Shown: positions 8,667 to 27,933, counted from the first letter of the stretch. The stretch is DNA of 64,000 nucleotides from an uncultured Actinomycetes bacterium (GCA_963817105.1 CAWFNA010000001.1:66711-130710); one strand, 5' to 3'. Notes: generated from the sequence alone by a model not told the origin. Translations and numbers: made by a program.

Positions 8667-8954
8667 TCACAGCACGAGGTCGGCGTACTCCGGGTGCCGC
8701 CGGAGATACTCCGACACGAACGGGCAAAGAGGTATCACTTTCAGCCCGTGGGCGCGGACGTCGTCCAGCGCGCTCTCGACGAGCCGTGTGCCGAGGCCGC
8801 GGCCTTCGAGCTCCTCGGAGATCTCGGTGTGGAGAAAGACGCGCCCCTTGGGCCGCTGCCGGTAGACGAGCTCGCCGACGACGCCACCGTCCAGGACGAG
8901 CTCGTACCGGCGCGCCTCGGGGTTGTCCCGGACCGTGACCGCCGCTTCAATCAC
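8667..8954 (-). CDS. small GNAT-like N-acetyltransferase (YjdJ/Acetyltransf_CG type)
   Basis: Internal GTG (VIEAAVTVRDNPEARRYELV...) of ORF 8667..9188. GRGLGTRLVESALDDVRAHGLKVIPLCPFV is typical of the ~95-aa family. The upstream part of the ORF is low-complexity. Confidence 0.65.
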   Translation of the reverse strand: MIEAAVTVRDNPEARRYELVLDGGVVGELVYRQRPKGRVFLHTEISEELEGRGLGTRLVESALDDVRAHGLKVIPLCPFVSEYLRRHPEYADLVL

Positions 8955-9029
8955 CGTCCGAGAGTACTCGAGACCTGTCGCCCCGCTGCCGAAGACGGTG
9001 GGCTGAGACGCCCCCTCTAGAGTGTCGTC

Positions 9030-9426
9030 GTGCTGAGAGGGCGCTGCGGATGCAATGCCGTCGGCTACGAGGTGTCCGACGAGTTCATCGTCGCGTTCAA
9101 CTGCTACTGCTCGAACTGCCGTGCAGATGACGGGCTCGGCCTTCTTGCCATGGGGCGAGATCGAGCCCGAGAAGCTGAGGGTGACCAAGGGTGCCGACTC
9201 GTTGATCTTGATTGGCGATGCTCACGACCACCACGCGAGGCGCTGCGGGAAGTGCTTCTCGCTGCTGTATTGGACGGGCTACGAAGGCAAGATCCGAGTG
9301 CCCTATGGGTCACTGATCGACGAGCCGAGGCTCAAGCCGACGGCTCACATGTTCGTCGGCTCAAAAGCTCCTTGGTACGAGATCCTCGACGACCTCCCTC
9401 AGCATGACGAGTACCCGTGGCCTTGA
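9030..9426 (+). pseudogene. GFA (glutathione-dependent formaldehyde-activating/CENP-V) family protein with one apparent frameshift
   Basis: N-terminus MLRGRCGCNAVGYEV...FNCYCSNCR (frame of ORF 9030) continues as MTGSAFLPWGEIEPEKLRV...ARRCGKCFSLLYW (frame of ORF 9055). The shift is near 9122-9130. Confidence 0.7.
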
Positions 9427-9427
9427 T

Positions 9428-9973
9428 TTACGCCCAGGGCAGACGAGCCCAGTTCGGCGGCCGCTCTCGCCGGAACCGCTCGACCGTCGCGTACGCCTGC
9501 CTCCAGTCGGAGGTCTCCTCCGCCACGCTCGCGCCGTAGCGCGCCGCGAGCTCCGACACCGGGTAGTGCACTCCGGTCCCCGAGCGCGAACCGACCATCA
9601 GGATCACACACGGCCCCTCGCCCGCACCCACGAAGGCGTGCTCGGTCCACGGGGAAGAGTGGAAGAAGTCCCAGAGCCGCAGGCGTCGCTCCTCGTCCTC
9701 GACGAGCAGCGCGCACTCCCCTGAAAGGACGAGGAACGCCTCCTGGTTCGACTCGGCGTGGTAGAGACCGGTCTGTCCTGGCTCCAGGACGGTGACGTTG
9801 ATCCCGAGCTGGGCGAACTCGACCGGCGGATCGCCGTACTCGTTCTCGAAGGCGCACCTCGCGCCCCTCCTCTCCGAGAACCACCACTCGCTGTCGCGCA
9901 CGTTGACGACGAACCAGCCCTGGGTCACGGGCGTGAGCCCCGATCCGAAGTCCTCGAGTTGTGCTCCGGGCAC
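9428..9973 (-). CDS. cupin-domain protein
   Basis: Internal GTG of ORF 9428..10081. GINVTVLEPGQTGLYHAESNQEAFLVLSGECALLVEDEE is a cupin beta-barrel core. Confidence 0.65.
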   Translation of the reverse strand: MPGAQLEDFGSGLTPVTQGWFVVNVRDSEWWFSERRGARCAFENEYGDPPVEFAQLGINVTVLEPGQTGLYHAESNQEAFLVLSGECALLVEDEERRLRLWDFFHSSPWTEHAFVGAGEGPCVILMVGSRSGTGVHYPVSELAARYGASVAEETSDWRQAYATVERFRRERPPNWARLPWA

Positions 9974-10019
9974 GGACGCGATTCTCGCACCGCGGTTAGT
10001 CGCGAGCGTCGCCTCGGAG

Positions 10020-10484
10020 CTAGTCCTCGCCTTCCCAGTACTCGACCGTGGGTCCGGGCCTCGCGAACATGATGTCTTCATCCTCGACGCCCTTGGCGAG
10101 AACCTTTCCGGTGTCGAGGTACTCGACGATCTCGCCGGGGATCATCGAGGAGAGCATGAGTACGCGAATAGGCGAGTCCGTTCGGTTGATGATCTGATGC
10201 GCACCCTCCTTGCCGCGCGGAAAGCAGACGGCGTCACCCTCCTTCAGCACATGTTCACCCTCGGGCGTGCGCAGCGTGGGCTCGCCGCGGAGCACGATCA
10301 CCCATTCCTCATTCAGGTGGTGCGCGTGGTAGGGCCAGAGCCTGCTGCCAGGCTCGACCTCGGACATGGTCGCGCCGATTAGCTCACCGCCGATGCGTTG
10401 GCCGACAAGCGCGCCCTTGAAGCGCCAGCCCTCGCGGTCCCTCGTCCCGTCCCACTCGTCGCTGTTGAGATTGAAAGTCCTCAT
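10020..10484 (-). CDS. cupin-domain protein
   Basis: ATG at MRTFNLN within ORF 10020..10544. LWPYHAHHLNEEWVIVLRGEPTLRTPEGEHVLKEGDAVCFPRGKEGAHQIIN contains the cupin motifs. Confidence 0.7.
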   Translation of the reverse strand: MRTFNLNSDEWDGTRDREGWRFKGALVGQRIGGELIGATMSEVEPGSRLWPYHAHHLNEEWVIVLRGEPTLRTPEGEHVLKEGDAVCFPRGKEGAHQIINRTDSPIRVLMLSSMIPGEIVEYLDTGKVLAKGVEDEDIMFARPGPTVEYWEGED

Positions 10485-10548
10485 TCGGTAAACCCCGAGC
10501 ACGCGCGGCCTCCGTCGGGGCATCTCGAGGCGGCTATTCTCCATCGCC

Positions 10549-11112
10549 GTGCCCGCCTACGTTGTCAGAGCGCTGGACGAGTCGACCTGGCCTGCGTTCG
10601 CCGCGCTGGTGGAACGCAACAATGGCATCTTCGGGGGCTGCTGGTGCATGGGGTTCCACGAAGACAACAAAGGCACGGTGCCCCCCAAGCGCGAGCGGAA
10701 GCTCGCTCGCGTGCGGGCAGGCACGGCGCATGCGGCCCTCGTGTTCGACGGCGACGACTGCCTGGGCTGGTGCCAGTTCGGCGCGCCCGACGAGGTGCCG
10801 AGGATCAAGAACCGCGCCGTGTACGAGAAGAGCCTGACGGCGTTGCCGGACTGGCGAACCGCGTGCCACTTCGTCGGCAAGGGGCACCGTCGCCAGGGTG
10901 TCGCCACCGCGGCGCTCGCGGGCGCGCTCGACCTCATCGCGGATCTCGGCGGCGGGAGGGTGGAGGGCTACCCGGAGGACGCAGGCTCGGTCCCTGCCGG
11001 CTTTCTCTACCACGGTGCTCTGTCGACGTACGAGGGACTCGGATTCGTGCGCGACCGCAAGATCGGCAAGCACCGCTGGGTCGTTACAAAGGTGGTCGAG
11101 CCAAAGCCTTAG
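10549..11112 (+). CDS. GNAT-family N-acetyltransferase
   Basis: 187-aa ORF. GKGHRRQGVATAALAGALDLIADLGG is an acetyl-CoA-binding Q/RxxGxA motif. Confidence 0.75.
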   Translation: MPAYVVRALDESTWPAFAALVERNNGIFGGCWCMGFHEDNKGTVPPKRERKLARVRAGTAHAALVFDGDDCLGWCQFGAPDEVPRIKNRAVYEKSLTALPDWRTACHFVGKGHRRQGVATAALAGALDLIADLGGGRVEGYPEDAGSVPAGFLYHGALSTYEGLGFVRDRKIGKHRWVVTKVVEPKP

Positions 11113-11164
11113 GCGGCGTCGCGACGCTCCAGGGACATTCTCGAACGCCGGCGCATGCAAGACC

Positions 11165-11246
11165 GCGACCACCTGAGTAGTACGGCGTGCCCTTCCACGC
11201 TGCGAGGCACTTGGGGGATCCCTGCTTCAGTGGCCCGCTCGCCGCC
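11165..11246 (+). repeat. cassette-junction repeat, copy 0 (degenerate)
   Basis: CTGAGTAG at 11173-11180 (cacCTGAGTAGtacgg). An arm-like cagtggcccgctcgccgcc lies at 11228-11246. It follows the GNAT stop directly. Confidence 0.4.
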
Positions 11247-11315
11247 GAAATCAAGCACTAGGATGCCCCCGCTGCAAGTGTCGGCATTCGGAGCTCATCC
11301 AGGAGGTACGGCTAG

Positions 11316-11717
11316 ATGGCGGAGGCCAAGCAGGTTGTCGAGCGGCACGTCGACGCGTTCAACGCACACCAGCCGGACGCCGATCCGTGGGCTGAAGACG
11401 CCGAGTTCGTGGTACCGGGTGCGTCGATGCGCGGCCGTGAGGACGTGCTGGCGTTCCTCGGCGCTTTCCAGGAGGGATTTCCCGACGGGCGGCTCGAGCT
11501 GTCGCGGGTCTTCGGCGAGGGCTCCCTCGTCGCAGCGGAAGGACGGTTCATTGGCACGCACAGCGGCGTGTTCCGCACGCCCTCTGGCGAGGTCCCGGCC
11601 ACCGGTCGGCATGTCGAGTTCCGCTGGATGTCCGCCTATGAGGCTCGTGGCGACGAGCTCGCCTCCGAGCATCTGTTCTTCGATCAAGTCGAGCTCCTCG
11701 CCCAACTTGGCCTCTAG
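11316..11717 (+). CDS. SnoaL-like/ester-cyclase (NTF2-fold) protein
   Basis: AGGAGG RBS 8 nt upstream. VVERHVDAFNAHQPD...FLGAFQEGFPDGRLEL...RFIGTHSGVF matches the SnoaL polyketide-cyclase-like pattern. Confidence 0.7.
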   Translation: MAEAKQVVERHVDAFNAHQPDADPWAEDAEFVVPGASMRGREDVLAFLGAFQEGFPDGRLELSRVFGEGSLVAAEGRFIGTHSGVFRTPSGEVPATGRHVEFRWMSAYEARGDELASEHLFFDQVELLAQLGL

Positions 11718-11814
11718 ACGCGAGAGAGATCAGCTTTCTTTACGTCAAGGTCGAGTGCCCGGGCCCGACGCCGTTTCGCCAACCCCCAAGGCTCAAGCGC
11801 TCGTAGTCGGGACT

Positions 11815-11895
11815 CCACGCGCTGAGTAGCGATGGCCCTAGGACGAGAACAAAGCATGACGACTTGAGCTAGGACGGGGACGGGTTGAGTAGCAA
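11815..11895 (+). repeat. cassette-junction repeat, copy 1 (degenerate; two core starts)
   Basis: gcgCTGAGTAGCGatgg at 11822-11829 and gTTGAGTAGCaac at 11885-11893. Confidence 0.45.
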
Positions 11896-12114
11896 CTAGC
11901 CGATGCGGGTTGGGCAAGTGCTTCGGCGGCGCTATAGTCAAGGCGCCGGTGTCCCGAGCACCAGACCGTCGTAGATTCCGAGCGGGGAAGCCACACCACA
12001 CTCGGTTGCGCCAGCGTTCCGCATGACGGCTGAGCCCGGATCATCCGCGGAGCCAGGGTGGCCGGGCGTGAAGCTAGGTGGGCGGGGACGAGCAGGCGGG
12101 AGTTCGTTTCCGCG

Positions 12115-12690
12115 TCAGGCGGGCGGATGTTTCCAGACGACTGTCGTCCGCCCCGAATCGACAGGGGTGACGGTTTCTGTCGGTATCGCACCGAGTCTCT
12201 CGGCGACCCGCTGAGAGCGGACGTTATCGGACGAGATCAGAGAGACAAGCCGGTCGATGGATCGACACCCATATGCCCATTTCCGGATGGCCGCGGCTGC
12301 TTCGCTCGCATATCCGTGGCCCCAGTGCGCACGTATCAAGGCCCACCCAAGCTCCGGCTGACCATGGCTTCCTGCGTTAGCCCAGGTCGAGGGCGTCCAG
12401 CCGCGTGTATCGAAGATCATGAGACCGGCCTGGCCGACCACCTGCTGGTCGGTAGCTGCGGTCTCAATGATGAACGCACCGAGCCCGTCCGTTCTCCAAC
12501 CACCGATCCATTCTTCGATGATGGCTCGTGCTTCCTCGGTTGCTGAGACGGGCTCTTTGCCCAAGCCATGCATCACCTCGGAGTCCGTGAACAGGTCGTA
12601 AAGCGCGTCCGCGTCCCGCAGAGTCGGCGTGCGTAGGCAAAGCCTGTCCGTATGAAGGAGCACCTCCCAGGACGAGGCGTCAGGAGCCAC
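12115..12690 (-). CDS. GNAT-family N-acetyltransferase (RimJ/RimL-like)
   Basis: 191-aa ORF. TDRLCLRTPTLRDADAL...ELGWALIRAHWGHGYASEAAAAIRKWAY is typical of RimJ/L-type GNATs. Confidence 0.8.
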   Translation of the reverse strand: MAPDASSWEVLLHTDRLCLRTPTLRDADALYDLFTDSEVMHGLGKEPVSATEEARAIIEEWIGGWRTDGLGAFIIETAATDQQVVGQAGLMIFDTRGWTPSTWANAGSHGQPELGWALIRAHWGHGYASEAAAAIRKWAYGCRSIDRLVSLISSDNVRSQRVAERLGAIPTETVTPVDSGRTTVVWKHPPA

Positions 12691-12721
12691 GCCAAGAGGC
12701 TAACCGGAGCCGCAACCGCCG

Positions 12722-12852
12722 CTTGGGCCAGTGTGCTCTCGCCTGACATCGCTCATCAGGCCTGCCGCGCTGAGTAGCGTGGATCAAATAGGGCATAACG
12801 ACCGCTGTCATGATCCGGCCGCGACAGCGTTCAGGCGAGAGCGCGCCGCCCA
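12722..12852 (+). repeat. cassette-junction repeat, copy 2 (complete: inverted arms + core + internal hairpin)
   Basis: Left arm cttgggccagtgtGCTCTCGCCTGAc (12735-12746) is the exact inverse of TCAGGCGAGAGC (12831-12842). Core catcaggcctgccgcgCTGAGTAGCGTGGATCAAATAGGGCATAAC starts at 12770. Extra hairpin GCTGTC...GACAGC at 12804-12828. Confidence 0.8.
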
Positions 12853-12887
12853 CACGACGGCGCGGTGGGCGTGGCATCCTGATTGGC

Positions 12888-13487
12888 GTGCGCGTCCTCG
12901 ATCGATCGCTGTCGCGGTTCCCCAGGCCACTCCGAACACTGATCGACTGGACGCTTACGATCACCCTTGCCGTTATGGGAGTGCTTGTCTTCCAGGCCGA
13001 GATCGCGAAGCCGTACAGGATCCCCTCGGCCTCGATGGAGCCGACTCTCCATTGCGGGAAGCCTGCGGACGACTGTAGGTCTCGCGTCTCTGATCGAGTG
13101 ATCGCGAACCGAATCGTCTACCGGTTCCATGCACCCGAGCGTGGCGACATCATCGTCTTCAACGCGCCTGCCAGGGTGAAAGCGGCTTGCAACGCCAGTG
13201 GCGTGTTCGTCAAGCGGATCGTCGGGCTTCCTGGCGAGCAGGTTTCGATGCAAGAGGGTCACGTCCTCATCAACGGAGTTCGGCTGAGGGAGCCTTATCT
13301 CGCCCCCGCCTATCGCGGGCGGGAGAGCGGCGAATGGCCTCGGAGCCCCCGAGCCGGCTACTTCGTGCTCGGCGACAACCGCGCGATGTCGTGCGACTCA
13401 CGCCGTTGGGGCGTCGTTCCGCGCGAGAGCATCATCGGCCGAGTCGATATCCGGTACTGGCCGCCCAATCGGGCGGGCGAACCCTAG
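12888..13487 (+). CDS. lepB: signal peptidase I
   Basis: ORF 12810..13487. I prefer GTG 12888 because the first 26 codons lie inside the repeat. Motifs: IPSASMEPTL (catalytic Ser box), GDIIVF, VKRIVGLPGE, GDNRAMSCDSRRWG. Confidence 0.8.
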   Translation: MRVLDRSLSRFPRPLRTLIDWTLTITLAVMGVLVFQAEIAKPYRIPSASMEPTLHCGKPADDCRSRVSDRVIANRIVYRFHAPERGDIIVFNAPARVKAACNASGVFVKRIVGLPGEQVSMQEGHVLINGVRLREPYLAPAYRGRESGEWPRSPRAGYFVLGDNRAMSCDSRRWGVVPRESIIGRVDIRYWPPNRAGEP

Positions 13488-13597
13488 CCAGCCAGCTTCT
13501 CCTCCACGCCGGTGCCGCGGATGCACCCTGAACGCGGGCTACGTCCACGTCGCTACGAACGATCCCACCGGATTCGCCACTCCGTCGGCGGATTAGA

Positions 13598-14629
13598 GTG
13601 CCTCGGCCTGTGGCCGAACGAGTCCTCACGCTACGCGAGCTGAACCGCGCGACACTCGCGCGGCAGCTCCTCCTCCAGCGCACGCGACTCTCGCCAACGG
13701 CGGTGATCGAGCGCCTCGTCGGGATGCAGGCGCAGTCGCCGCAGGCTCCGTACGTCGGTATCTGGACGCGCACGACGGGGTTCCGGCGCGGGTCGCTCGA
13801 GCGGCTGCTCCGGCAGTCCACGATCGTCAGGGCGACGGCGACGCGGCAGACGCTGCACCTCGTCACGCGGCGCGACTATGCGCTCATCCGGGCGGCCTTC
13901 CCCTGGGAGACGGAACGGGCGAATCAGCTCGCCCCGTCGGTGCGCGCGCTCGCAGCCGGGGGACCCGTCACGTCGGCGGAGGCGCTCGCCCACCTGGAGA
14001 GCGAGTACGGCCTCGCCGGCGTCGATGCGCGCCGCGCCTGGCAGACGGCGCGCGTCGCAGCGCACATCGTCCACCACCCCGAGACGGCGCTCTGGCAGCC
14101 GCGCAACGAGCAACGGTTTGTCGCGATCGAGGAACCGGAGGCGCACGTCCCGGTCGAGGCGCGCGTCGAGATCTTCCGCCGCTACCTCGCGGCCTTCGGC
14201 CCCTCGACGCGCCGCGACATCGGAGCCTGGAGCATGATCCGCGTGGCCGAGATCGACGCTGCACTGGAGCTGCTCGAGCCGCTGCGCCGCTTCCGCGACG
14301 AGCAGGGCCGCGAGCTCCTCGACGTCCCACGAGCGCCGCTGCCGGACGCCGAGACCCCGGCGCCCGTACGCTTCCTGCCGAAGTGGGACAACGTCCTGCT
14401 CGCCTGGGCCGACCGGACGCGCGTGCTCCCCGAGCAGTACCGGAAGACGGTGATCAAGATGAACGGCGACGTCGCGCAGACGTTCCTGGTCGACGGATTC
14501 GTCGCCGGGATCTGGCGCGTCGACGACGGCCGTGTCGTGCTGGAGCCGTTCGAGCCTCTTTCAGCCGCGGCGCGGCGCGAGATCGAGGACGAGGCAGGGC
14601 GTCTGGAGGCGTTCCTCGCCGAGCCCTAG
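13598..14629 (+). CDS. winged-helix DNA-binding protein of the YcaQ/AlkZ (DUF1006) DNA-glycosylase family
   Basis: 343-aa ORF. LNRATLARQLLLQR...ERLVGMQAQSPQAPYVGIWTR...LPKWDNVLLAW are characteristic of the family. Confidence 0.7.
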   Translation: MPRPVAERVLTLRELNRATLARQLLLQRTRLSPTAVIERLVGMQAQSPQAPYVGIWTRTTGFRRGSLERLLRQSTIVRATATRQTLHLVTRRDYALIRAAFPWETERANQLAPSVRALAAGGPVTSAEALAHLESEYGLAGVDARRAWQTARVAAHIVHHPETALWQPRNEQRFVAIEEPEAHVPVEARVEIFRRYLAAFGPSTRRDIGAWSMIRVAEIDAALELLEPLRRFRDEQGRELLDVPRAPLPDAETPAPVRFLPKWDNVLLAWADRTRVLPEQYRKTVIKMNGDVAQTFLVDGFVAGIWRVDDGRVVLEPFEPLSAAARREIEDEAGRLEAFLAEP

Positions 14630-14740
14630 TCGCGCTCGGCGAGCAGCTGCTGCATGCGCGCGATCTCGATCCGCTGGCCGTCCTCGACGTTATGCGGTGC
14701 CACGCTTCGGATCGTACGCAGCAACCACGCAACGTCCACC

Positions 14741-14857
14741 CCGTCGGCTGGGCCAGTGTGCTCTCGCCTGGACATCGCCCGAGGGCCTGCCACGCTGAGT
14801 AGGAAGGATCAATAGGGCAGAACAGTCGCGTTAGGTGGGAACACGCTCGCCCAGGCC
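14741..14857 (+). repeat. cassette-junction repeat, copy 3 (complete: left arm + core + right arm)
   Basis: The sequence is ccgtcggctgggccagtgtgctctcgcctggac - atcgcccgagggcctgccacg - CTGAGTAGGAAGGATCAATAGGGCAGAAC (core from 14795) - agtcgcGTTAGGTGGGAACACGCTCGCCCAGGCC. Confidence 0.8.
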
Positions 14858-14875
14858 ACTCTCGCCCCGTTGGCT

Positions 14876-15427
14876 TCAGAGTCCTCGTCGGAGCCAATCG
14901 TCTCGGCGAACCTCGTACACCGTCATCGGCTCGCCCGAGCGCCCGCGGCCTGGGCCACGCGCTGCGAATCCGAGCTTGGCGGCAAGGCGACGAGATGGTT
15001 CGTTCGCTCCCTCCTCGATGTAGGCCGTGATGCTCTCGACGTCGGTACGGCCCCAGAGGTCATCGATTGCTGCTTCCATCGCCTCGGTCGCGATGCCTTC
15101 CCTCCGCCGCTCCTCGGTCACCCACCAGCCCGCCTCGACCTCGTCGGACGCGATTCCCTCGATGCCATGACCGGCAAGGCGCAGCTCGGCGCCGCCGAGG
15201 AAGCTCTCGTCTCGTCTGTCCCGGATCGCCCAGGGGCCGAAGCCGTGCTCTCGCCACTGCAGCTCGGCGGCGCGAGTGTCGCGCAATGCGTCGGCGGGGT
15301 TGTTCGACGCTCGTGCGTGCTCGGCCTCGTCGAGTCGTCTCAGCGGGATCAGGATCAGACGCGCTGTTCGGAGAACGATCCCGCCGCGTGCCGGCCCCGC
15401 TGATTCGCCCGCGTAGCGTCCATGCAC
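14876..15427 (-). CDS. GNAT-family N-acetyltransferase (RimJ/RimL-like)
   Basis: 183-aa ORF. TARLILIPLRRLD...EAGWWVTEERRREGIATEAMEAAIDDLW. The start codon is uncertain. Confidence 0.75.
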   Translation of the reverse strand: MHGRYAGESAGPARGGIVLRTARLILIPLRRLDEAEHARASNNPADALRDTRAAELQWREHGFGPWAIRDRRDESFLGGAELRLAGHGIEGIASDEVEAGWWVTEERRREGIATEAMEAAIDDLWGRTDVESITAYIEEGANEPSRRLAAKLGFAARGPGRGRSGEPMTVYEVRRDDWLRRGL

Positions 15428-15471
15428 GCCCGCAGTATGGCCCGATCCGTTCTGGTGTTATTCCCGAACTC

Positions 15472-15583
15472 ATTGGCCCACGTCAGGGCGCTACCGCCTG
15501 AGTAGCGTGGATCAATAGGGCAGAACGGCGTCAGGGGCTTTTCGCCCTGCGGTCGCGACGGGCAGGCGAGAGGAAGCTCGCTC
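15472..15583 (+). repeat. cassette-junction repeat, copy 4
   Basis: The sequence is attggcccacgtcagggcgctaccgcCTGAGTAGCGTGGATCAATAGGGCAGAAC (core from 15498), then hairpin CAGGGGCttttcGCCCTG, then arm GGCAGGCGAGAGGAAGCTCGCTC (15561-15583). Confidence 0.7.
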
Positions 15584-15639
15584 TGTCGAACCAGCGAGTC
15601 GTCACTCGCTCAGGTCGGCGTTAGTGTCTTTCGGTACCA

Positions 15640-15879
15640 ATGGTGGGCACTGCCACGATTACTACGACTGCTGCAGTTGCCGGCCTCGTTGCAAGCCTTG
15701 GAATCGGCAGTGTCATTGGCGCCGTCGCCGCTGGCTGGATTGCCCAGAGGGAGAAGTTCCGCGAACGCACCATCGAGGCGTGCGATGAGTTCCTCGAGAA
15801 GGAGAGCCGCGCGCGTGAGTTGTTGTTTCATGCCGAGCGTGCCCTCTTCTGCTCGATCGCGCCGAATCCCATGCGATGA
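15640..15879 (+). CDS. hypothetical small membrane protein
   Basis: 79-aa ORF with one clear TM (AAVAGLVASLGIGSVIGAVAAGWIA) and a charged tail. No family recognised. The rest of this inter-repeat interval has no convincing ORF. Confidence 0.3.
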   Translation: MVGTATITTTAAVAGLVASLGIGSVIGAVAAGWIAQREKFRERTIEACDEFLEKESRARELLFHAERALFCSIAPNPMR

Positions 15880-16289
15880 CACCCGGCGACCCGCAGCGGG
15901 GCGCTCGCCGACGCGACTGCGGCGTGCCGCGTGTTGCAGACACATGCCTAACCGGCTGTCACTCTTCTTTGGTACAGGCGAGGCGCGGGCGGCGGCTCAC
16001 CAGGCTCACAGGGTTGGCGCGCGGTACTTCTCCTGGCGAGACTCCCTCTACACGTTCGCCGTCGATGACGGCCCCCGACCGAAAGCCGGCGAGAACGAGC
16101 ATTTCGAGGTGAGGAAGGCAGGCGTACAACGCGTTCGCGCAGCACGCAAATGCTGTCATCAGGCCGCGGTTGAGGGACTCCTTCCCTGCAGGGCGGCGGA
16201 ACGCTTGACGGCTCCCATCTGCTTCGCCGAACCGTTCGTTTCTGGCTGAGTGGCAGCGGCTCCGCAGCTTGCTCGCCGGCCGGAGAGGC

Positions 16290-16353
16290 TCGCATCTGTA
16301 ACTACTGAGTAGCGGTAAATACCCGACTCCCTCAGGCGAGAGGACGCTCGCTC
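16290..16353 (+). repeat. cassette-junction repeat, copy 5 (short core + right arm)
   Basis: actaCTGAGTAGCGGTAAATAcccgactccCTCAGGCGAGAGGACGCTCGCTC. Core at 16305-16312, arm at 16330-16353. A weaker CTGAGTGG lies at 16246. Confidence 0.55.
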
Positions 16354-16412
16354 AACTCGCGGTCCTAGCCCCAGAGCTCGAGAAAGAGTAGACGGGCGGC
16401 TCAGCCCGGCGG

Positions 16413-18939
16413 ATGATCACGTCGGGCATGCGAGACGACCGCCCAAGCGGCACGGTCACTTTCCTCTTCACCGACGTCGAGGATTCGACGAAGCTTCTCG
16501 ACGAGCTCGGTGCGGAGGACTACGCGGAGGCGCTCGGCGAGCACCGACAGCTGATCCGCGAGGCCTGCGCTGACGGAGGCGGGGTCGAGGTCGACACCCA
16601 GGGCGACGCGCTCTTCCTGGCCTTCCCCACCGCGCCCGGCGCACTGAAGGCTGCTGCGGCCTTCACCGAGGCGCTCGCTCCAGGTCCCGTTCATGTACGA
16701 GTCGGCGTGCACACCGGGACGCCGCTTCGGACCGACGAGGGTTATGTCGGCGGCGACGTCCACCGCGCGGCGCGCATCGCCGCCTGCGGCCACGGCGGGC
16801 AGGTGCTCGTGTCGGCGTCGACTGCACAACTCGTCGAATTCGAACTCACGCGACCTTGGCGATCACCGGCTCAAGGACCTGTCCGCTCCCGAACGCCTGT
16901 ACCAGCTCGGCGAGCGCGAATTCCCGGCGCTCAAGTCGCTCTACCGCACGAACCTGCCGATCCCGGCCACGCCGTTCCAAGGAAGGGAGCAGGAGCTTTC
17001 CGAGGTGGTCGAGCGCCTGTCGAAAGACGATGCTCGCCTCCTCACGCTGACCGGGCCCGGAGGGACAGGGAAGACGCGGCTCGCCCTGCAGGCGGCGGGC
17101 ATGGCTTCGGAGGACTATCCCGACGGCGATCTTCTGGGTGCCGCTTGCGCCGCTTCGGGACCCAAGCCTCGTCCTCGCGACAGCTGGCCAGATACTCGGC
17201 TCGAAGAGCGCTCTCGCCGAGCACATCGCCGACCGGCGGATGCTCTGTCTGTTCGACAATTTCGAAGCAAGTCGTGGAGGCGGCAAGCGACCTCGCGGCA
17301 CTCGTCAGCTGCTTGCCCGAACCTCGACGTCCTCGTCACGAGCAGGGAGCGCCTGCGCGTCTCCGGTGAGCAGACCTACCCCGTGCCGCCGCTCGCCGAG
17401 TCAGATGGCGAGGCGCTCTTCGCCACGCGAGCCCGCGCCGTCGATCCCTCCTTCGTCCTGACCGACGCGGTACGAGAGCTGTGCCTGCACCTCGACGAGC
17501 TTCCGCTCGCCATCGAACTCGCCGCCGCCCGCACCGGCGCTCTTCAGCCCCGAGCAGGTGCTGGAGCGCCTCTCCGAGCGCCTCGACCTGCTGAGAGGCG
17601 GACGCGACGCCGATCCCCGCCAGCAGACGCTGCGCGCGACGATCGAGTGGAGCCACGACCTCCTCTCGGGGGAGGAGCAGCTTCTCTTCTCCCGCCTCGC
17701 CGTCTTTGCCGGAGGGTGCACGTACGAGGCTGCCGAGGAGATCGCGAGGCGCAGATCCTCGACACCCTGGAGTCGCTGCTCGACAAGAGCCTGGTCCGCA
17801 AGCGCGACTCGAAGCTCAAGCTCCGCTACTGGATGCTCGAGACGATCCGCGAGTACGCGGTCGAGCAACTCGAGGCGTCGGGAGAGGCCGACGAGCTACG
17901 TCGGCGGCACGCAGAGTGGTTTCTCGATCTGGCCGAGGAGGCCGAGCCCTATCTGCGCGAAGGCAGCCAGGAGTGGATAGCGCGCCTCGATGCAGAGCAC
18001 GACAACATGCGCTCTGCTCTCGATTTTTGTGGAGTCTCGCGCGAGGGTCAGCTCAGTATGAGGCTGACGGGCGCGCTGACGCACTTCTGGTTGGGCCGCG
18101 GCCACCTGAGTGAGGGCCGGCGGCGCTTGGAGGCTGCGCTCTCCTCTGATGCCCGTCCGACAACTGCCCGCAGCAAGGCGCTGACCGGAGCCTCGTTCAT
18201 GGCTCTACGGCTTGGAGACCATGAATCTGCCCGCGCCCGAGCGCAGGAGGCGCTTCGGCTGTATCGCGATCTCGACGATCCCTGGGGGGTTGCCTACGCG
18301 ACGATGACGGTCGGCGTCACATTCGCCGAGGCAGGCGATCTGGCAGCTGCCCGGCCGTTCTTGGAAGCGAGCATGCTCGCCTTTCGCGAGCTCGGCAATG
18401 AGTACTACACAGGAGTGGCGGCGGAGAACGTCGCCTGGGTCGTACATGGTCTTGGCGACAAGCATCGCGCGCGGGCGCTCCTCGAGGAAAATCTCGAACG
18501 AGCGCGTGCGCTCAACAATCGGCGCCACGAGATGATCGCGATCGACGGGCTGGCCATTTTCGCTCGTGACGACGGTCGGCTGGAGGAAGCCCTCTCGATG
18601 CTCGGGGAGGTCCTGAAATTCAGTCGGGAGCTGGGCGATCGCCTCGAGCTCGCGATCGGTCTCGGCAGCCTCGCGGAGGTGCTCGCTCTCGCTGGCGAGT
18701 CGTACAGGGCGGCTTGCTTGTTGGCGAGTTCGGAAGCTCTGACGGAGGAGATCGACGCAAGAACGCCATGGTGGGCAGCGGAGAGGAACGAGAAGACCGC
18801 TCGCGTGATCCGCGAGCGGCTCGACGAATACGTCTTCGATCAAGCCTGGGGGCAGGGTGCGAAGCTGAGCCTCGAGGAGGCGTGCGCACTCGCACTGGGC
18901 GAAGCTGAGCGGAACACAAACGCGAAGGGCGGCCCGTAG
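16413..18939 (+). pseudogene. adenylate/guanylate cyclase - NB-ARC/STAND ATPase - TPR protein with about 6 apparent frameshifts
   Basis: Cyclase domain: GTVTFLFTDVEDSTKL...GDALFLAF...GVHTGTP...GGDVHRAARI. Walker A: LTLTGPGGTGKTRLA. Then VLVTSRERL...LPLAIELAAAR and C-terminal TPR-like repeats. The pieces switch between the frames of ORFs 16413, 16693, 17138 and 17558 near 16850, 17130, 17270, 17300, 17550 and 17750. Confidence 0.8.
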
Positions 18940-18950
18940 CCGCCCCGCGT

Positions 18951-19033
18951 GCGCATCAGGCCTGCCGCGCTGAGTAGCGTGGATCAATAGGGCAGAACAG
19001 TCGGGTCGGGTGAGAACACGCTCGGCCAGCCGA
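18951..19033 (+). repeat. cassette-junction repeat, copy 6
   Basis: gcatcaggcctgccgcgCTGAGTAGCGTGGATCAATAGGGCAGAACagtcgGGTCGGGTGAGAACACGCTCGGCCAGCCGAGG. Core from 18970. It starts 12 nt after the stop of the cyclase-STAND gene. Confidence 0.75.
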
Positions 19034-19208
19034 GGTTCTTTGCGCTCGTAGAGTTCAGCCGATCTAATCGGTCAGAGAGGGAAGCCTGGCGAAACTACTA
19101 CAACCAGGTGAAGAGGTTAAGAGGGCGATCGTCGCGCGTATTCGGGGCGGCCAGGATCTCCTAGCCAAAGCTGAGATCGCTGAAAGGTCCGGAGGATATG
19201 AAGACTGG

Positions 19209-19814
19209 ATGGCTCTGTTCGCTCAATGGCGCGAAGCGACGGCCGCCGAGCTCACTGCACTCTATGAAGAGAGGGAGACAGCGCGGGAATTCACCGCTGT
19301 CACAGGGACGGCAGATCACTCATCCCCGCAGTTCACCTTTCCACACAGGAAGAGAGCGCTCGAGACGGGGCTCTTCTGGCTGGAGCGCCTGATTGACAGA
19401 CTTGAACTTGCGATCGTGGAATCGTCAGATGCCACGGCGATAGAGAGTTTGCATCCCGCGATCTCGTCTTCGTGCCGCAAGCTTTACGAGGACGGCGCTT
19501 ATGCAGAAGCAGTCGAAAAGAGCTTCAAGATAGTTCGCGACAGGCTTCGTATTCTCACAACCTACGAGACCGGATCGGATGCCTTTGGCAAGGGCAACCT
19601 CTACGTAGACGGGGCGGCAGCTCAGCATGTCGATGGAGATTTCCAGGCTGGCGTGAAGTTTCTGACGATGGCGATCGATCGCTTCCGTAACGAAAAGGTC
19701 CACACCGCGGATGGAAACATCAGCGATCCGATCCGCGCCTATGAGTACCTGCGTCTCAGCAGCCTTGCCATGCATCTCCTCGAGAGGGCTCAGAGCCGCC
19801 CCTCAGCATCGTAG
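19209..19814 (+). CDS. TIGR02391 (Hypoth_ymh) family protein
   Basis: The C-terminal ~125 aa (LHPAISSSCRKLYEDGAYAEAVEKSFKIVRDRLR...FLTMAIDRFRNEKVHT...AYEYLRLSSLAMHLLERA) fit the TIGR02391 pattern. The gene lies in a visibly lower-GC patch. Confidence 0.65.
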   Translation: MALFAQWREATAAELTALYEERETAREFTAVTGTADHSSPQFTFPHRKRALETGLFWLERLIDRLELAIVESSDATAIESLHPAISSSCRKLYEDGAYAEAVEKSFKIVRDRLRILTTYETGSDAFGKGNLYVDGAAAQHVDGDFQAGVKFLTMAIDRFRNEKVHTADGNISDPIRAYEYLRLSSLAMHLLERAQSRPSAS

Positions 19815-19950
19815 AGTGATGTGCTCAACCCCTTGCCTGGTGGCCTAAAGCCCTGTCCTGTCGAGCGTTCGGCGCCGTCGGTCGTCTTTCGCTGGTAGTC
19901 ACTACGCTGAGCCTGCAGAGGCGCCGTCCTCGAGCGACATTCGCGCACTC

Positions 19951-19995
19951 AATGGCCGGCGCACGTCAGGCCGCCACCGTCTGAGCGGCTGGTTC
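19951..19995 (+). repeat. cassette-junction repeat, copy 7 (degenerate, terminal)
   Basis: aatggccggcgcacgtcaggccgccaccgtCTGAGcggctgg resembles the left half of copy 4 (cacgtcagggcgctaccgcCTGAGTAGCGTGG). It overlaps the stop of the PaaK-like fragment. Confidence 0.3.
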
Positions 19996-20975
19996 AGGCC
20001 CGTGCGGCGCGCTTGACGAGTTTGAGCCTGGCGGCGTGCCCGCTCTCGCGCTCGATCTCCGGCACCGTGACGACCTCGATCGGCGGCGGGACGGCTCCGG
20101 AGGATTCGAGCACGTCGAGCACCGCGGCCCGCACCCGCAGAGGAGTGTCGGCGGCCGAGTCGCGCGGGACGATCCGGATCTCCAGCCGCCCGTCGTGCTG
20201 GACGACCTGGTACTGACGGAGCTCGGCGAGGCAGGCGAACGGCTCCCGGAGGCGGTAGGGATGGACGGCGACCTCGCCCCCGCGCGCGCCCGGGAAGCGG
20301 AGGATGTCGTCGCTCCGCCCCTCGACCGCGGCGATGCTTCGATACGGCAGGGGGCTCGCGTGCGTGTCGCCGGCGAGCATGACCGAGTCGGAGAGCTCGT
20401 AGCGGATCAGCGGCTGCGTCCGGTTGACGAGATTGGTCACGAGCACCTTGAAGCCCGGGACGCCCGGCGGGACGGGCCGGTTGCTCTCGTCGACGACCTC
20501 GACGATGGAGAGGTCCTCGTAGAGGTCGAGCTCCCGTCGCGGCGGCGTGCTCGTGGCGATGTACAGCGTCTCGGTCGACGCGTAGACCTCGACGGGCACG
20601 ATCCCCCAGGCGTCTCCGATCCAGCCGCGCGCCTCGTCGGTCAGGACCTCGCTGCTGACGCCGACGATCCGCGGCGCGATCCGAAGCCGTCCCTCGAGCT
20701 GCTCCTGCGCGAGCAGCGCCGCGACGCTCCGTAGGTGAGGACGGCCGCGGGCTGGTACTCGTTGAGCGAAGCCACGGTCTCGTCGAGCGGCGTCGAGACG
20801 GAGAGCACCGGGGCTCCGGACCGGCCGGAGCGAAAGGCGGCGAACAGCTCTCGCGTGATGTGGAGCGGGTTCGGGGCGCTGATCGCCGCGAGCCGCGTCT
20901 CGGGGGTGAGGCCGACGCGCGCGAACAGGCGCAGCGAGACGGCGACCTTGCCATGTCGGTGTCGTGGGTCGAGGC
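19994..20975 (-). pseudogene. phenylacetate-CoA ligase/F390-synthetase-like adenylate-forming enzyme, 5'-truncated, with one frameshift
   Basis: ORF 19994..20599 gives the C-terminal half (VEVYASTE...). Upstream in another frame it reads KVAVSLRLFARVGLTPETRLAAISAPNPLHITRELF...LNEYQPAAVLTYG / SVAALLAQEQLEGRLRIAPRIVGVSSEVL, with a shift near 20735. The N-terminal ~130 aa, including the adenylation P-loop, are missing, and the fragment abuts the TetR stop. Confidence 0.65.
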
Positions 20976-20986
20976 GGGGGCTGTGG

Positions 20987-21588
20987 TCATCTCGTCAGTC
21001 CAATCGCGATGGCGGTGTGCATCTCCTCGAACAGGTCCGCGGAGACGGAGGAGGGGTCGAGCAGGCGGTCGAGCGCCATGCCGCGCGCGAGCGCGTTTGA
21101 GCCGCGGGCGATGTCCTTCGTCGGGATCGCGAAGGTGACCCCCTGACGGGCGCCGAGCTCGTCGATCAGCCCGGCGATGATGGTGAAGAAGCGCTCGCGC
21201 CGCTCGGCGACGGCGGTCCGGAGCGCCGGGCGCCGCGACGCGTGCGCCCAGAACTCGAGCAGGAGCGGCGTCCAGCGCGGCTCGCCCTCGTCCGCCGCGA
21301 CCATGGACCGCGCGACCGCGCGGTAGCTCGACTCGAGGTCCTTCTCGTCGAGCAGGACGTCCGCGAGGATCCACGCCCGCCGCTCGAACTGGGCGTCGAG
21401 GACGGCGAGGAACAGCTCGTCCTTGCCCGCGAAGTTGGAGTAGACCGCGCCCTTCGAATACCGGCGCGCTCCGCGATCTCGTCGAGCGACGCGCCGTGGA
21501 GGCCGCGCTCGAGGAAGACCTCGAGGGCGGCGGCGACGAGGCCGCCACGCGTCTGCTCGCGGCGTTCCGCGTGGGTCAGGCGACCCAT
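20987..21588 (-). pseudogene. TetR/AcrR-family transcriptional regulator with one apparent frameshift
   Basis: MGRLTHAERREQTRGGLVAAALEVFLERGLHGASLDEIAERAG (ORF 21166..21588) continues as SKGAVYSNFAGKDELFLAVLD... in the frame of ORF 20987..21895. The shift is near 21455. Confidence 0.8.
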
Positions 21589-21953: not shown

Positions 21954-23279
21954 ATGACACCCGCTCCCTCACCACCGCCTGGGGCTTCTCCCGATCCGGC
22001 AGAGCTCCTCAGGAGCCGCAGCTACATGGCGCTCCTGGCATTCGGCGCCGTCATCGGCGTGCCGGTGGCGACGGTTGCGTTCTTCTTCCTCAAGGGGGTG
22101 GACGAGGCTCAGCGTTACCTCTTCGCAACGCTTCCCGGGGAGCTGGGGTTCGACGGGCAACCGAGCTGGTGGCCGATACCGCTGCTTGCCCTGAGCGGGC
22201 TGGTGGTAGCGCTCACGATCCGGCACCTGCCGGGGACGGGAGGGCACAAGCCGGCGGAGGGGTTCAAGGCATCCGGGCCCGTGCCGCCGATCGAGCTCCC
22301 CGGGATCGTCATTGCAGCGTTCGCCACGCTCAGCCTCGGGGTCGTCCTCGGCCCGGAGGCGCCTCTGATCGCGATCGGCAGCGGCCTCGGAGTCCTCGCC
22401 GTCCACCTGCTCAAGCGCGACGCGCCTCAGATGGCCAGTGTCGTGATCGGCGCCGCCGGGAGCTTCGCCGCGATCAGCACGCTCCTCGGCTCGCCTCTTC
22501 CGGCCGCGTTCCTGATGATGGAGGTGGCCGGGATCGGCGGCGCGATGCTCGGAGTGGTGCTCGCGCCCGGGCTGCTCGCTGCCGGTGTCGGCTCGCTGAT
22601 CTTCATCGGGCTCGACAACTGGACCGGCTTCAGCACCTTCTCGCTCGCAGTCCCGGACATCCCTCCGGCCGGCAGCCCCGGTGTGTCCGAGTTTCTGTGG
22701 GCGCTCGCGATCGGCGTCATCGCGGCAATCCTCGGCGCCGGCATCAAGTGGCTGGCGCTGGCGCTTCAGCCGATCGTCGAACGCCGAAGCGTGCTACTGA
22801 CACCCGTTGTCGGCGTCGCGATCGGCGTTGTCGTCCTGATCTTCGTCGAAGTAACGGGGAGAAGCTCCGCCGAGGTGCTCTTCTCGGGACAGAATCAGCT
22901 CCCGGGCCTGATCGAAGGCGCCGCCGGCTGGACCGTGGGCGCGCTCCTGATGATCGTCCTCTGCAAGGGCCTCGCGTACAGCTTCTCGCTGAGCAGCTTC
23001 CGAGGCGGCCCCATTTTCCCGAGCATGTTCATCGGCGCCGCCGGCGGCATTGCGCTCTCCCACCTTCCCGGCCTGCCGATGATCGCGGGTGCCGCAATGG
23101 GTATCGGCGCGCTGATGGTCGCAATGCTGGGACTGCCGCTCACGTCCGTTCTCATCGTGAGCGTGCTCCTCGAGGCCGACGGCCTGACCCTGATGCCGCT
23201 CGTGATCGTCGCCGTCGTGGTCTCCTACGTCGTCTCGGCCCGGCTCCGTCCTAGCCCCGTCTCCGCGGCACCCTCGTAG
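21954..23279 (+). CDS. ClC-family voltage-gated chloride channel/antiporter
   Basis: 441 aa with 10 or more TM helices. It carries the selectivity-filter-like motifs GPEAPLIAIGSGLG and GGPIFPSMFIGAAGG. Confidence 0.8.
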   Translation: MTPAPSPPPGASPDPAELLRSRSYMALLAFGAVIGVPVATVAFFFLKGVDEAQRYLFATLPGELGFDGQPSWWPIPLLALSGLVVALTIRHLPGTGGHKPAEGFKASGPVPPIELPGIVIAAFATLSLGVVLGPEAPLIAIGSGLGVLAVHLLKRDAPQMASVVIGAAGSFAAISTLLGSPLPAAFLMMEVAGIGGAMLGVVLAPGLLAAGVGSLIFIGLDNWTGFSTFSLAVPDIPPAGSPGVSEFLWALAIGVIAAILGAGIKWLALALQPIVERRSVLLTPVVGVAIGVVVLIFVEVTGRSSAEVLFSGQNQLPGLIEGAAGWTVGALLMIVLCKGLAYSFSLSSFRGGPIFPSMFIGAAGGIALSHLPGLPMIAGAAMGIGALMVAMLGLPLTSVLIVSVLLEADGLTLMPLVIVAVVVSYVVSARLRPSPVSAAPS

Positions 23280-23288
23280 GCAGCCGGA

Positions 23289-24458
23289 TCACCGCGCACG
23301 AGCCACTCCGAACGACGCGAATCCCATGACCAGAGCAACGATTGCACTGAACCCGTAGACGGTGGGCAGCGACACGCCGTGGTCGAGCAGCGGCCCGACC
23401 CCGAACGCGGCGATCCCGTAGCCCAGCTGGTAGAAGGCGATCACTCCGCCGGCGACCGCGGCGGCCATCGTCGGCGAGCTCCTTCTCGCCGAAGCCGATC
23501 GTCAGCGGAAGGAGGGCGGAGCAGCCGAGCCCCGCGACGCCGAACGCCACGATCCCGGCGGCGGTGGCGTCGTCCGGTAGGAGGGCGATCACCACGAAGG
23601 TTGCGGCAAGCAGGAACGGCAGGACGCGGTACGTCGTGCGCACGGGCAGCCAGCGCTCGACGGCGGCGCTGAGGACGCGTCCGACCGTGACCATCGTCCA
23701 GAACGCGGTGAGCGCGATCGCAGCCTGCGTCGTCGAGGCGCCGAGCTCGCTCGTCATGTCGAGCTGCGACCAGTTGCCGTTGACCGTCTCGCAGAAGCCA
23801 TAGAGCACGGCGAAGGCGGCGAACATCCAGAAGCGAGTCGGGGATGCCCGCCGTCCTCGACGAGCGCGGGCGCGTCCGTACGCAGCGGGAGGCCGAGGCT
23901 CCGAACGAGAAGCGCGGTGAGGAGGATCGCCGACAGCACCGGGAGGCCCCACCAGAAGCCGAGCCCCACGAAGATCGCGACGAGCACCGGCGCGAATGCC
24001 GTGCCAAGCCCGAGCAGCGCGTTGAGGACGAGGACAGACGATTCGACCGCGGCGGGATGGAAGGCCGCGGTCAGGGTGTTCAGGGACGGCACTGTGAGGC
24101 CGAACCCGACGCCGAGGAACGCCGTGGCGACGAGCAGGAGCGGGAAGGCGACGGACGTGTCGTCCTCGACGAACGTGCTGGAGATCAGCAGCAGCATCGA
24201 GACGAGGCTGCAGACGAGGCCGGCAAGGTAGACCCGCTTCGTGCCGAAGCGGCCGCCGAGCGACGCCCCGAGCAGCGACGCGGCGATCGCAGTCGCGACC
24301 TGGGGCAGGAACAGGACGCCGTACTGCGTGTTCGACAGGTCGTACCGGTCGGGGTCGGTGAAGATCGTGCTGGCGGCCGGGAACGTGACCAGCACGATCC
24401 CCTGCGCGGCCCCCGCCGCGTAGACGACGGACGTCTCGGCGCGTGACGCGATGGCCAC
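23289..24458 (-). pseudogene. MFS transporter with two apparent frameshifts
   Basis: N-terminal 6 TM in ORF 23754..24458. It continues as FWMFAAFAVLYGFCETVNGNWSQL...LPLTIGFGEKEL in the frame of the long 23251..26250 ORF, then as SPTMAAAVAGGVIAFYQLGYGIAAFGVGPLLD...SFGVARAR* in a third frame, with the stop at 23289-23291. Confidence 0.7.

Positions 24459-26022: not shown

Positions 26023-27933
<1,911 letters not shown>

Follow-up and report, generated by a model that had tools for sequence, protein, structure and literature searches.

The 64-kb stretch of DNA analysed here, the window, comes from an uncultured Actinomycetes bacterium, and all window coordinates refer to its full length. Between about 9.0 and 20.0 kb it carries what is probably (we put it at roughly 0.6) an old, partly decayed array of mobile single-gene cassettes. 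The cassettes adjoin remnants of a ~36-bp site, named M1 here, which marks similar arrays in many other genomes. At the same rough probability of 0.6, the array family consists of mobile single-gene cassettes distributed across Gaiellaceae and Thermoleophilia and moved by site-specific exchange at a TG dinucleotide within M1. The whole analysis is built on comparative sequence evidence. An earlier note on this DNA had described a modular array of single-gene accessory units with a co-oriented junction repeat in a high-GC actinobacterial host, and had suggested an undescribed cassette-capture system. The modular layout was confirmed, the host is of the Gaiellaceae/Thermoleophilia type, and the suggested undescribed system for cassette capture is still the reading that fits best. 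The literature yielded no description of these arrays.

The name M1 denotes the site ctcGcc-TG-GGCCAGyGTkCGGGAATGTCmCCyGAg. Its logo, c.ctcGcc TG gGCCAGyGTkCGGGAATGTCmCcyGAg, has an invariant T (97%) and G (96%), with variation at the adjoining positions. A scan of one genome per species with the exact pattern TGSGCSAGYGTKCGGGAATGTC, for which we estimate about one chance match, found it in at least 120 stretches. Those listed belong almost entirely to metagenome-assembled genomes (MAGs) of Gaiellaceae, Thermoleophilia, Solirubrobacterales or Actinomycetes/Actinomycetota; among the matches listed, three short contigs were binned outside these groups (Gemmatimonadales, Polyangiaceae and Acidobacteriota). 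A position weight matrix (PWM) run on 0.93 Mb of fetched loci, designated L001 onwards, returned 364 M1 sites in 115 loci and no match in reversed or complemented control sequence. All copies share one strand in 77 of the 81 loci with two or more sites. The density reaches nine sites per 8 kb, and L135 holds 13 co-oriented sites across 17 kb. Neighbouring sites lie a median of 699 bp apart, and a crude caller based on G+C at third codon positions placed exactly one gene of at least 80 amino acids in 133 of 233 intervals. By the same caller, gene orientation is random relative to the site (104 co-oriented, 95 opposed). On the metagenome contig L001, the 29-nt core of the window's repeat described below occurs once, and a different repeat, TGGGCCAGYGTTCNGGAATGTCCCCTGAG, comes after each of three small genes downstream of it; L006 carries six copies of this L001-type repeat, all on one strand, with one gene in either orientation per interval.

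M1 corresponded to no Rfam family at the gathering threshold in the window and ten M1-rich loci. Two loci were set aside as uninformative: L002, a chance match within a gene of a low-GC phage, and L132, a prophage end with an integrase 8 kb from a single M1. L003 has, at 1-38 and 1317-1354, a perfect 38-nt direct repeat, ACCGCGTGCGCATGTTCGATTCATGCCGGGGGCACTTC, which is an M1-like variant; one copy stands at the contig end, and the assembly appears to break at this repeat.

Comparison of the window, unit by unit, with 115 further loci established that each unit is a discrete entity and that units change order, and come or go one at a time, from genome to genome. Seven of them (GFA, two cupins, three GNATs and the AlkZ-like gene) were found singly elsewhere, at 79-98% identity and in other orders. 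The GFA unit (9021-9427) is 84% identical to L093 5113-5518, where it lies between two M1 sites. Cupin 1 (9426-9995) is 96-97% identical to its counterparts in L066 and L057 and is also present in L052 and L039; cupin 2 (10000-10493) has nine matches in eight loci, eight at 72-92% and the second L098 copy at 75%, each stand-alone. The homology of GNAT-A (10570-11140) to L052 and L120, at 79-82%, stops at M1, and GNAT-B (12119-12747) is 88% identical to L079 5064-5697. The AlkZ-like unit (13553-14759) matches L069 and L099 at 96%, standing alone there and ending at M1. A partial match to the LepB cassette occurs in L114, and the cyclase/STAND/TPR gene is 68-72% identical to cassettes of L004, L095 and L036. 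GNAT-D (14797-15502) matches L003 at 97.7% along 706 nt; its context there is unrelated, and the rest of L003 is unlike the window. This homology ends within two bases of the two 8-mers that flank the unit. The same cassette (14797/14842-15480/15510) is found in 13 loci, at 98% in L039, and a GNAT of L001 is 78% identical to the window gene (14876-15427). In soil metagenomes, 529 homologues of the GNAT-D protein were found at E<=1e-20; one carries the label Gaiellaceae. Cupin 1 abuts GNAT-D in L039; the two lie 5 kb apart in the window. Overall, window cassettes share 96-98% identity with those on MAG contigs of Gaiellaceae and 'Actinomycetes' assembled from long reads of soil.

Because the window splits into units that are found alone in other loci, the array reaches left to about 9.0 kb, through GFA, two cupin and one GNAT unit with decayed junction sites, and the LepB and AlkZ-like genes are units of their own. 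The earlier note had placed the array at 11113-20000 and had joined LepB and the YcaQ glycosylase in one unit. Its right end and its gene calls (by Pfam) stand; its left limit does not, nor does the joint unit, since the AlkZ-like gene occurs alone in L069 and L099.

Gain and loss of units are also visible between loci. L074 has the order A-B and L098 the order A-X-B, the extra 1.6 kb spanning from M1 site to M1 site; L052 reads P-Q and L057 P-(four cassettes)-Q. A search for pairs of the A-B versus A-X-B kind gave none with strict settings and several with relaxed thresholds. The closest relatives, L128-L131 (88-90% identity to the window CLC channel protein), lack M1, the core and any homologue of the array region. 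Around CLC their backbone is rearranged, and a same-locus comparison was replaced by the cassette-by-cassette comparison; across other loci, this bore out the expectation that units vary one at a time between genomes. In L128/L129 (10037-21344), the block G6PD - GH15 - GMC oxidoreductase - cytochrome bd - ABC transporter (window 21972-37882) is inverted relative to CLC.

The position of the breakpoint was examined, by identity per column, at 45 junctions where two loci have a cassette in common but a different neighbour. Where the common cassette lay 3' of the site, the columns ahead of TG showed background identity and those from TG on reached 0.78-1.0; where it lay 5' of the site, high identity persisted as far as TG and then dropped to background at the variable positions of M1. 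Four variable positions inside M1 agree with the 3' cassette (0.78-0.96 identity) rather than with the 5' cassette (0.32-0.64). The long conserved part of M1 thus goes with the downstream cassette and the weak ctcGcc arm with the upstream one. Because identity switches at the TG columns, the exchange point is the invariant TG, which is centred in the short palindrome CTCGCC-TG-GGCSAG.

The array behaves as an integron cassette array does and lies outside that family. In both, cassettes form long arrays, mostly with a single accessory gene and one co-oriented site per cassette; the crossover is precise and near the site edge, one site arm being rebuilt from the neighbouring cassette, and cassettes are shuffled between genomes. 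Both have GNAT, cupin, glyoxalase and SnoaL-type cargo and some cassettes without a gene. M1 differs in being a conserved ~36-bp duplex without R''/R' boxes, conserved fold or covariation. No IntI and no attI/Pc platform was seen at M1 arrays, genes in them point either way, their cassettes presumably having promoters of their own, and the host phylum is one where integrons are essentially absent.

The earlier note likened the locus to sedentary chromosomal arrays of attC sites without an integrase (CALIN). That it is a divergent but genuine array of this kind with an unusual attC is extremely improbable, in spite of one gene per repeat, co-oriented sites, typical cassette cargo and a GTTAGGT heptamer in repeat copy c3 that fits GTTRRRY. 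This chance heptamer, present in c3 only, lies 50 nt from any boundary, and the M1 logo has neither R''/R' boxes nor GTT at the junction. The crossover is ctcGcc-TG-GGCCAG instead of G/TTRRRY, in keeping with the earlier remark that the sites fall outside the canonical attC consensus. The conserved part, ~36 bp, is below the 57-141 bp of attC sites. Conservation is of sequence and not of structure: at 17 candidate pairs in 354 M1 sites, Watson-Crick pairs were as frequent as expected under independence and mutual information was 0.03 or less, and single-strand DNA folds of the eight window copies had no common stem (z -3.1 to +1.1), contrary to the shared fold considered earlier. An attC-like hairpin was rejected on these folds and the covariation test. 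There is no gene orientation bias, and the three integrases tested on TIGR02249 (L056, L097 and L059) scored 44-64 bits against a cutoff of 265. Finally, Actinobacteria lack complete integrons (PMC9024848), which supports the earlier note's remark that integrons are essentially unreported there.

Staphylococcal cassette chromosome elements (SCC/SCCmec, moved by Ccr) and pseudo-SCC offer a second comparison. They too are tandem, co-oriented elements with short direct-repeat sites that start at the 3' end of a backbone gene, and members without a recombinase are moved in trans; the 2-bp invariant centre of M1 in an imperfect palindrome would likewise have a serine-type look. M1 units measure 0.3-3 kb, unlike the 3-60 kb of SCC, and have no single conserved target gene. 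Modules bounded by pdif sites (XerCD, on Acinetobacter plasmids) and integrative mobile elements exploiting Xer (IMEX) at dif resemble the arrays in their small gene modules, recombinase sites and an enzyme encoded elsewhere. Sites of the pdif type alternate in orientation and are recognisable 28-bp dif-like sequences; M1 sites are co-oriented and dissimilar to actinobacterial dif.

From such systems comes the explanation that small integrative elements accreted stepwise through a housekeeping or island recombinase, in the manner of SCC-Ccr or IMEX-XerCD and without a dedicated cassette enzyme, which we hold to be distinctly unlikely. At window c7 and in L001 and L117, arrays do begin directly downstream of the stop codon of a co-oriented backbone gene. 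In L117 (2470-2560 and 6400-6470) a 3.9-kb array of four M1 sites directly follows a stop codon and lies between ~25-nt duplicates of the gene's 3' end; L037 (~1900-1960) is its unoccupied counterpart, with a degenerate M1-like sequence only. Several arrays, moreover, lie within tRNA-linked islands. L004 has a 9.3-kb island between perfect 28-nt direct repeats (3331-3358 and 12669-12696) that equal the 3' end of a tRNA-Cys (12670-12740, -); the island holds an M1 array, and a decayed C-terminal tyrosine integrase fragment (12380-12657, +) sits beside the tRNA. Other arrays are near tRNA-Lys (L097), a tRNA fragment (L059) and tRNA-Ala (L005). Against accretion, the backbone genes beside arrays vary by locus with no single attB gene, and the units are far smaller than known integrative elements. 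M1 is also unlike the actinobacterial dif used as comparator, CACGCCGATAATGCACATTATGTCAAGT of Frankia alni (PMC3025954), which may not be the dif of Gaiellaceae and shares with M1 only ATGTCA. The mapped crossover lies 8-9 nt from any possible Xer central region, and a dif/Xer site was rejected on both sequence and crossover position.

The enzyme that would move the cassettes was sought in the window and in the array contexts. As noted earlier, the window has no recombinase in view: Pfam scans covering most of the open reading frames (ORFs) called in its 64 kb found no recombinase or transposase family, and tblastn with tyrosine-integrase queries gave no match. In six array contexts of 13-21 kb, no recombinase was annotated except the L004 remnant. 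About six of the 115 loci contain a tyrosine recombinase or a fragment of one (five with integrase-like matches plus the L004 fragment). Those of L004, L059 and L097 adjoin tRNA genes or fragments, and L056, L124 and L041 have no tRNA in their 8-kb stretch. As the array enzyme, these nearby integrases were rejected, those of L004, L059 and L097 resembling ordinary island integrases beside tRNAs; a dedicated adjacent integrase was rejected on 294 flanking ORFs and the six longer contexts. Y1_Tnp did not appear in a tally confined to the 25 commonest families per set, taken over two sets of flanking genes and one of in-array genes (423 genes altogether). The ~1.1 Mb of sequence with arrays showed no ccr-like gene, judged only by the most frequent Pfam families of flanking and in-array genes. 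Crossover sites of serine recombinases have a 2-bp invariant centre in a short imperfect palindrome, which CTCGCC-TG-GGCSAG may be said to resemble, as a resemblance only. Two invariant bases would fit a serine-type 2-bp overlap or an integron-like single-strand exchange better than the 6-8-bp overlap of tyrosine recombinases.

From these patterns we infer a recombination mechanism, including a circular intermediate and any role of the mini-elements described below. Each cassette would start with the ~29-bp part of M1 from TG-GGCCAG to CCyGAg and end with the weak c.ctcGcc, so that a junction reads ctcGcc-TG-GGCCAG. A recombinase encoded elsewhere in the genome would cut and rejoin at the TG of CTCGCC-TG-GGCSAG; cassettes would leave as circles with one complete, rebuilt site and could re-enter at any other M1 site. 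Each gene would use its own promoter, in whatever orientation its cassette happens to have. A recombinase acting in trans at TG would explain the co-oriented sites, the arbitrary gene orientation, the gain and loss of single units and the fixed breakpoint. The fuller proposition is somewhat less likely than an even bet: that Gaiellaceae and Thermoleophilia possess a cassette system independent of integrons, with up to at least 13 self-expressed cassettes, a double-stranded site of ~36 bp, TG exchange by a non-IntI (possibly serine) recombinase located away from the arrays, and mini-cassettes as a second, possibly regulatory or recombinogenic, component.

Several observations weigh against mobile cassettes exchanged at TG. 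No circular intermediate was observed, nor any empty and occupied pair inside one population. The junction comparisons are partly non-independent, as some cassettes recur in them, and the clustering of M1 is judged from stretches of 8-20 kb and one 64-kb window. Among 144 upstream and 150 downstream flanking ORFs there were only two Phage_integrase matches, and no other recombinase family recurred; the crossover invariance extends over only 2 bp, so the enzyme class is not deducible from it. The window has one intact M1, and its array may therefore be inactive now. The arms of the mini-element show no compensatory changes, and the c3 fold is no better than that of shuffled sequence.

The repeat first noticed in the window is the 8-mer CTGAGTAG. 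All seven + strand positions (11173, 11822, 12770, 14795, 15498, 16305 and 18970) were confirmed; dinucleotide-preserving shuffles averaged 0.61 matches over both strands, and not one of 100 reached 8. The degenerate eighth copy at 19981 (c7, CTGAGCGG) is real, its 28-nt upstream flank being 86% identical to that of the 15498 copy. The core reported as ~30 nt long in four copies is the 29-nt CTGAGTAGCGTGGATCAATAGGGCAGAAC, exact at 15498 and 18970, with 3 mismatches at 14795 and a 1-nt insertion at 12770, and the arm reported for most copies, TCAGGCGAGAG..CGCTCGCC, lies 3' of c2-c6, with the inverse arm 5' of c2 and c3 only. A further exact CTGAGTAG at 2922 (-) was rejected as an array repeat, since it belongs to the loop/stem of an unrelated, perfect 11-bp hairpin, GCGGCTCCTAC-CTGA-GTAGGAGCCGC (2912-2939), downstream of a hydrolase gene (818-2893).

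All seven copies are on the + strand. Copy c0 (11173-11180) has a type-2 left flank and no core on its right, and c1 (11822-11850) is the 8-mer with a diverged core, CGATGGCCCTAGGACGAGAAC. Two copies are complete mini-elements: c2 (12723-12853), which is palindromic, with an arm at 12723-12746, the 8-mer at 12770, the core to 12798 and the inverse arm at 12831-12853; and c3 (14748-14854), with the corresponding parts at 14748-14771, 14795, to 14823 and at 14831-14854. In c4 (15498-15585), 8-mer and core at 15498-15526 are preceded by a type-2 left flank and followed by an arm at 15562-15585; in c6 (18970-19029), 8-mer and core at 18970-18998 precede an arm at 19006-19029. Copy c5 (16305-16355, arm 16332-16355) has a type-II centre, AACTA CTGAGTAG CGGTAAATACCCGAC.

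The core is rare: its 29-nt pattern had no match in contigs of the representative-genome collection, and it was present only in the window, L001, L003, L004, L039 (twice) and L079. The second centre type, AACTA-CTGAGTAG-CGGTAATACCCGAC (window c5), also occurs in L092 (five copies on one strand), L061, L099, L096 and L083, and CTGAGTAGCG occurs 13 times outside the window against an estimated ~2 expected. At three junctions (one in L061, two in L092) a mini-element lies 24 nt from an M1 TG. Aligned in this context, with RC-M1 for the reverse complement of M1, it reads RC-M1...CTGGCC-CA-GGCGAGGGTTCTCTCTCC-AACTA-CTGAGTAG-CGGTAATACC...TCAGGCGAGAGGACGCTCGCC. It is thus a gene-less element of 80-130 bp with TG...CA ends and two ~20-bp inverted arms, directly beside the M1 crossover point and present at a minority of junctions; its arms derive from the M1 palindrome. 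From these alignments, CTGAGTAG is best described as the centre of a gene-less palindromic mini-element adjoining M1, and not as the family's primary junction site; the earlier note had described it as the junction repeat. Mini-elements are the visible junction repeat in the window because the right halves of M1 are mostly decayed or deleted there.

The 8-mer is the sole invariant segment among copies with mosaic flanks (two left-flank types and three right-flank types in five combinations), and in L039 both left-flank types are joined head to head across an inverted 8-mer. Because the mosaic flanks and this join fit exchange at the 8-mer, they suggest that exchange may also take place within it, at a second exchange point.

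The mini-element brings up a different explanation, in which the repeats are selfish and similar to repetitive extragenic palindromes (REP) and their hairpin-forming doublets (REPIN), or to miniature inverted-repeat transposable elements (MITE). M1 would be the singlet and the CTGAGTAG element the inverted doublet, spread by a transposase acting in trans, either a REP-associated tyrosine transposase (RAYT) or another, and the cassettes would reflect gene flux and homologous recombination. With REP/REPIN-RAYT systems and bacterial interspersed mosaic elements, the family has in common short, strictly intergenic repeats, the inverted-doublet form and, as proposed here, mobilisation in trans by a gene elsewhere; no recombinase lies in cis. 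The tetranucleotide GTAG, which heads REP sequences, occurs in the centre of the mini-element, and the TG...CA ends and ~20-bp inverted arms are of the kind expected, as is c2, whose single-strand fold pairs the two arms into a long hairpin (z = -3.1). We nevertheless consider this explanation unlikely. M1 singlets have no hairpin backed by covariation and bound portable gene units, and in 77 of 81 loci they are co-oriented, over many kb, instead of alternating or forming inverted pairs. Breakpoints fall at one position and not anywhere in the common 36 bp. Sites are clustered, with arrays ending sharply in 8-kb stretches and no M1 in the remaining 53 kb of the window. There is no evident target-site duplication; in the comparison with MITE and DDE elements, gene cassettes had only an 8-9-bp inverted match (P1).

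Single-gene cassettes encode proteins with a median length of 179 amino acids. By Pfam, the cargo comprises adenylate-cyclase/STAND/TPR or NB-ARC proteins, GNAT, alpha/beta hydrolase, RibD_C and glyoxalase, and further cupin, metallo-beta-lactamase-fold, YCII, AlkZ-like, GFA and SnoaL proteins. Cyclase and AAA_16 domains are among the commonest matches in cassette genes. The largest protein cluster at arrays combines adenylate cyclase, AAA_16 (STAND) and TPR or NB-ARC, some members also having BTAD, and counts 41 proteins in 31 loci, which include L004, L012, L028, L033, L036, L038, L046, L072, L095, L109, L122 and L126 as well as the window (16413-18939). Its genes often form 3-kb cassettes between M1 sites. 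The cargo unites accessory chemistry with signalling or defence, much as in sedentary integrons, which were recently argued to store signalling or defence genes; the prevalence of cyclase/STAND NTPases here likewise suggests a store of such genes.

Upstream of the GNAT-D start, CATACT, 6-7 nt and GTG follow one another in four loci: the window (~15430-15445, -), L001 (~1255-1270, -), L003 (~318-332) and L004 (~9848-9862). This CATACT-N6-7-GTG, between M1 and the start, is conserved and looks like an actinobacterial promoter for a leaderless transcript within the cassette, and such a putative promoter would be consistent with self-expressed cassettes. It could also speak for M1 and the CTGAGTAG element as regulatory or insulating punctuation, that is, as operator, promoter, terminator or translation-stop signals. 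Both centre types do place stop codons in all three frames of the 8-mer strand, and M1 is conserved in sequence as protein-binding sites are. Site orientation is independent of gene orientation, however (104 against 95), a promoter and terminator scan found no consensus at the core or repeats, Rfam gave no match, and regulation alone leaves the unit-wise shuffling with a fixed breakpoint unexplained. Pure punctuation is very unlikely.

To our knowledge, no well-characterised system other than integrons stores single genes as cassettes and reorders them. Why integrons are nearly absent from Actinobacteria and Firmicutes has long been a puzzle (PMC9024848). If mobile cassettes are indeed exchanged at M1, the capture of genes as cassettes has more than one origin; here it would use another site, and presumably another enzyme, in a lineage of soil actinobacteria that is abundant and almost uncultured, and part of the accessory-gene flux of Gaiellaceae would be explained. 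The 36-bp site and its defined crossover point would give a handle for seeking the missing recombinase, an enzyme that could be useful for genome engineering in high-GC Gram-positive bacteria.

Within the window, M1 survives mostly as remnants. The sole well-preserved copy, TGCGCCGGCGTTCGAGAATGTCCCTGGAG at 11124-11163 (-), scores 34.5 bits by PWM, against a null in which a single position scored -2 or more in 2 x 64 kb. The ungapped PWM overlooks decayed sites with insertions or deletions, and these were located by eye, among them a decayed M1 in cupin cassette 1 (~9963-9990, -) and an M1-like remnant after LepB (~13505-13540). Further decayed copies lie at 15447-15486 (-), inside the GNAT-D cassette, and at 19926-19965 (-). 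The latter opens the right array end (19926-19988), and c7 follows it; the stop codon of a convergent backbone gene (19994-19996) lies 5 nt past the end of c7 and 13 nt from its start. G+C is 0.59-0.68 across 9-20 kb and about 0.71 in the rest of the window.

The gene content, assigned by Pfam, can be read from left to right. A GNAT (Acetyltransf_CG) gene at 8667-9188 (-), at the left edge of the low-GC region, has no homologous unit in the fetched loci and may be a further old cassette. The GFA cassette (+) has lost its junction sites, and its gene (9030-9407) is truncated or frameshifted. Cupin cassettes 1 (Cupin_2) and 2 (gene 10020-10544) are both on the - strand, and GNAT-A (cassette 10549-11140, gene 10549-11112) is on the + strand. 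The SnoaL-like gene follows (11316-11717, +); the exact protein is also encoded on a 1.4-kb contig from another sample. An exact-protein look-up of the window's CDGSH protein found no match. GNAT-B (cassette 12115-12747, gene 12115-12690, -), the signal peptidase S26 (LepB) cassette (12810-13487, +), the AlkZ/YcaQ-like DNA glycosylase (gene 13598-14629, +) and GNAT-D (-) come next. The interval 15586-16304 has no recognisable gene, its ORFs at 15610-15945 (-) and 15677-16249 (+) being without Pfam match. It is followed by the adenylate cyclase/STAND ATPase/TPR gene (+), frameshifted in the assembly, and by a Hypoth_Ymh (TIGR02391-type) gene (19209-19814, +) in the interval with the lowest G+C (0.59).

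Beyond the GFA and cyclase-STAND-TPR genes, an AMP-binding-like gene (19994-21548) is frameshifted or truncated, and the cytochrome bd and ABC transporter genes at 32143-37809 are frame-broken too; the STAND homologue in L004 is an intact ORF of 867 amino acids. The split genes look like insertion and deletion errors of a long-read assembly, or widespread pseudogenes, and such broken frames account for the failure of exact-protein look-ups. At 34000-38000, overlapping the ABC-transporter genes, G+C rises to 0.76-0.80 with a strongly negative AT skew, and reading frames are hard to call.

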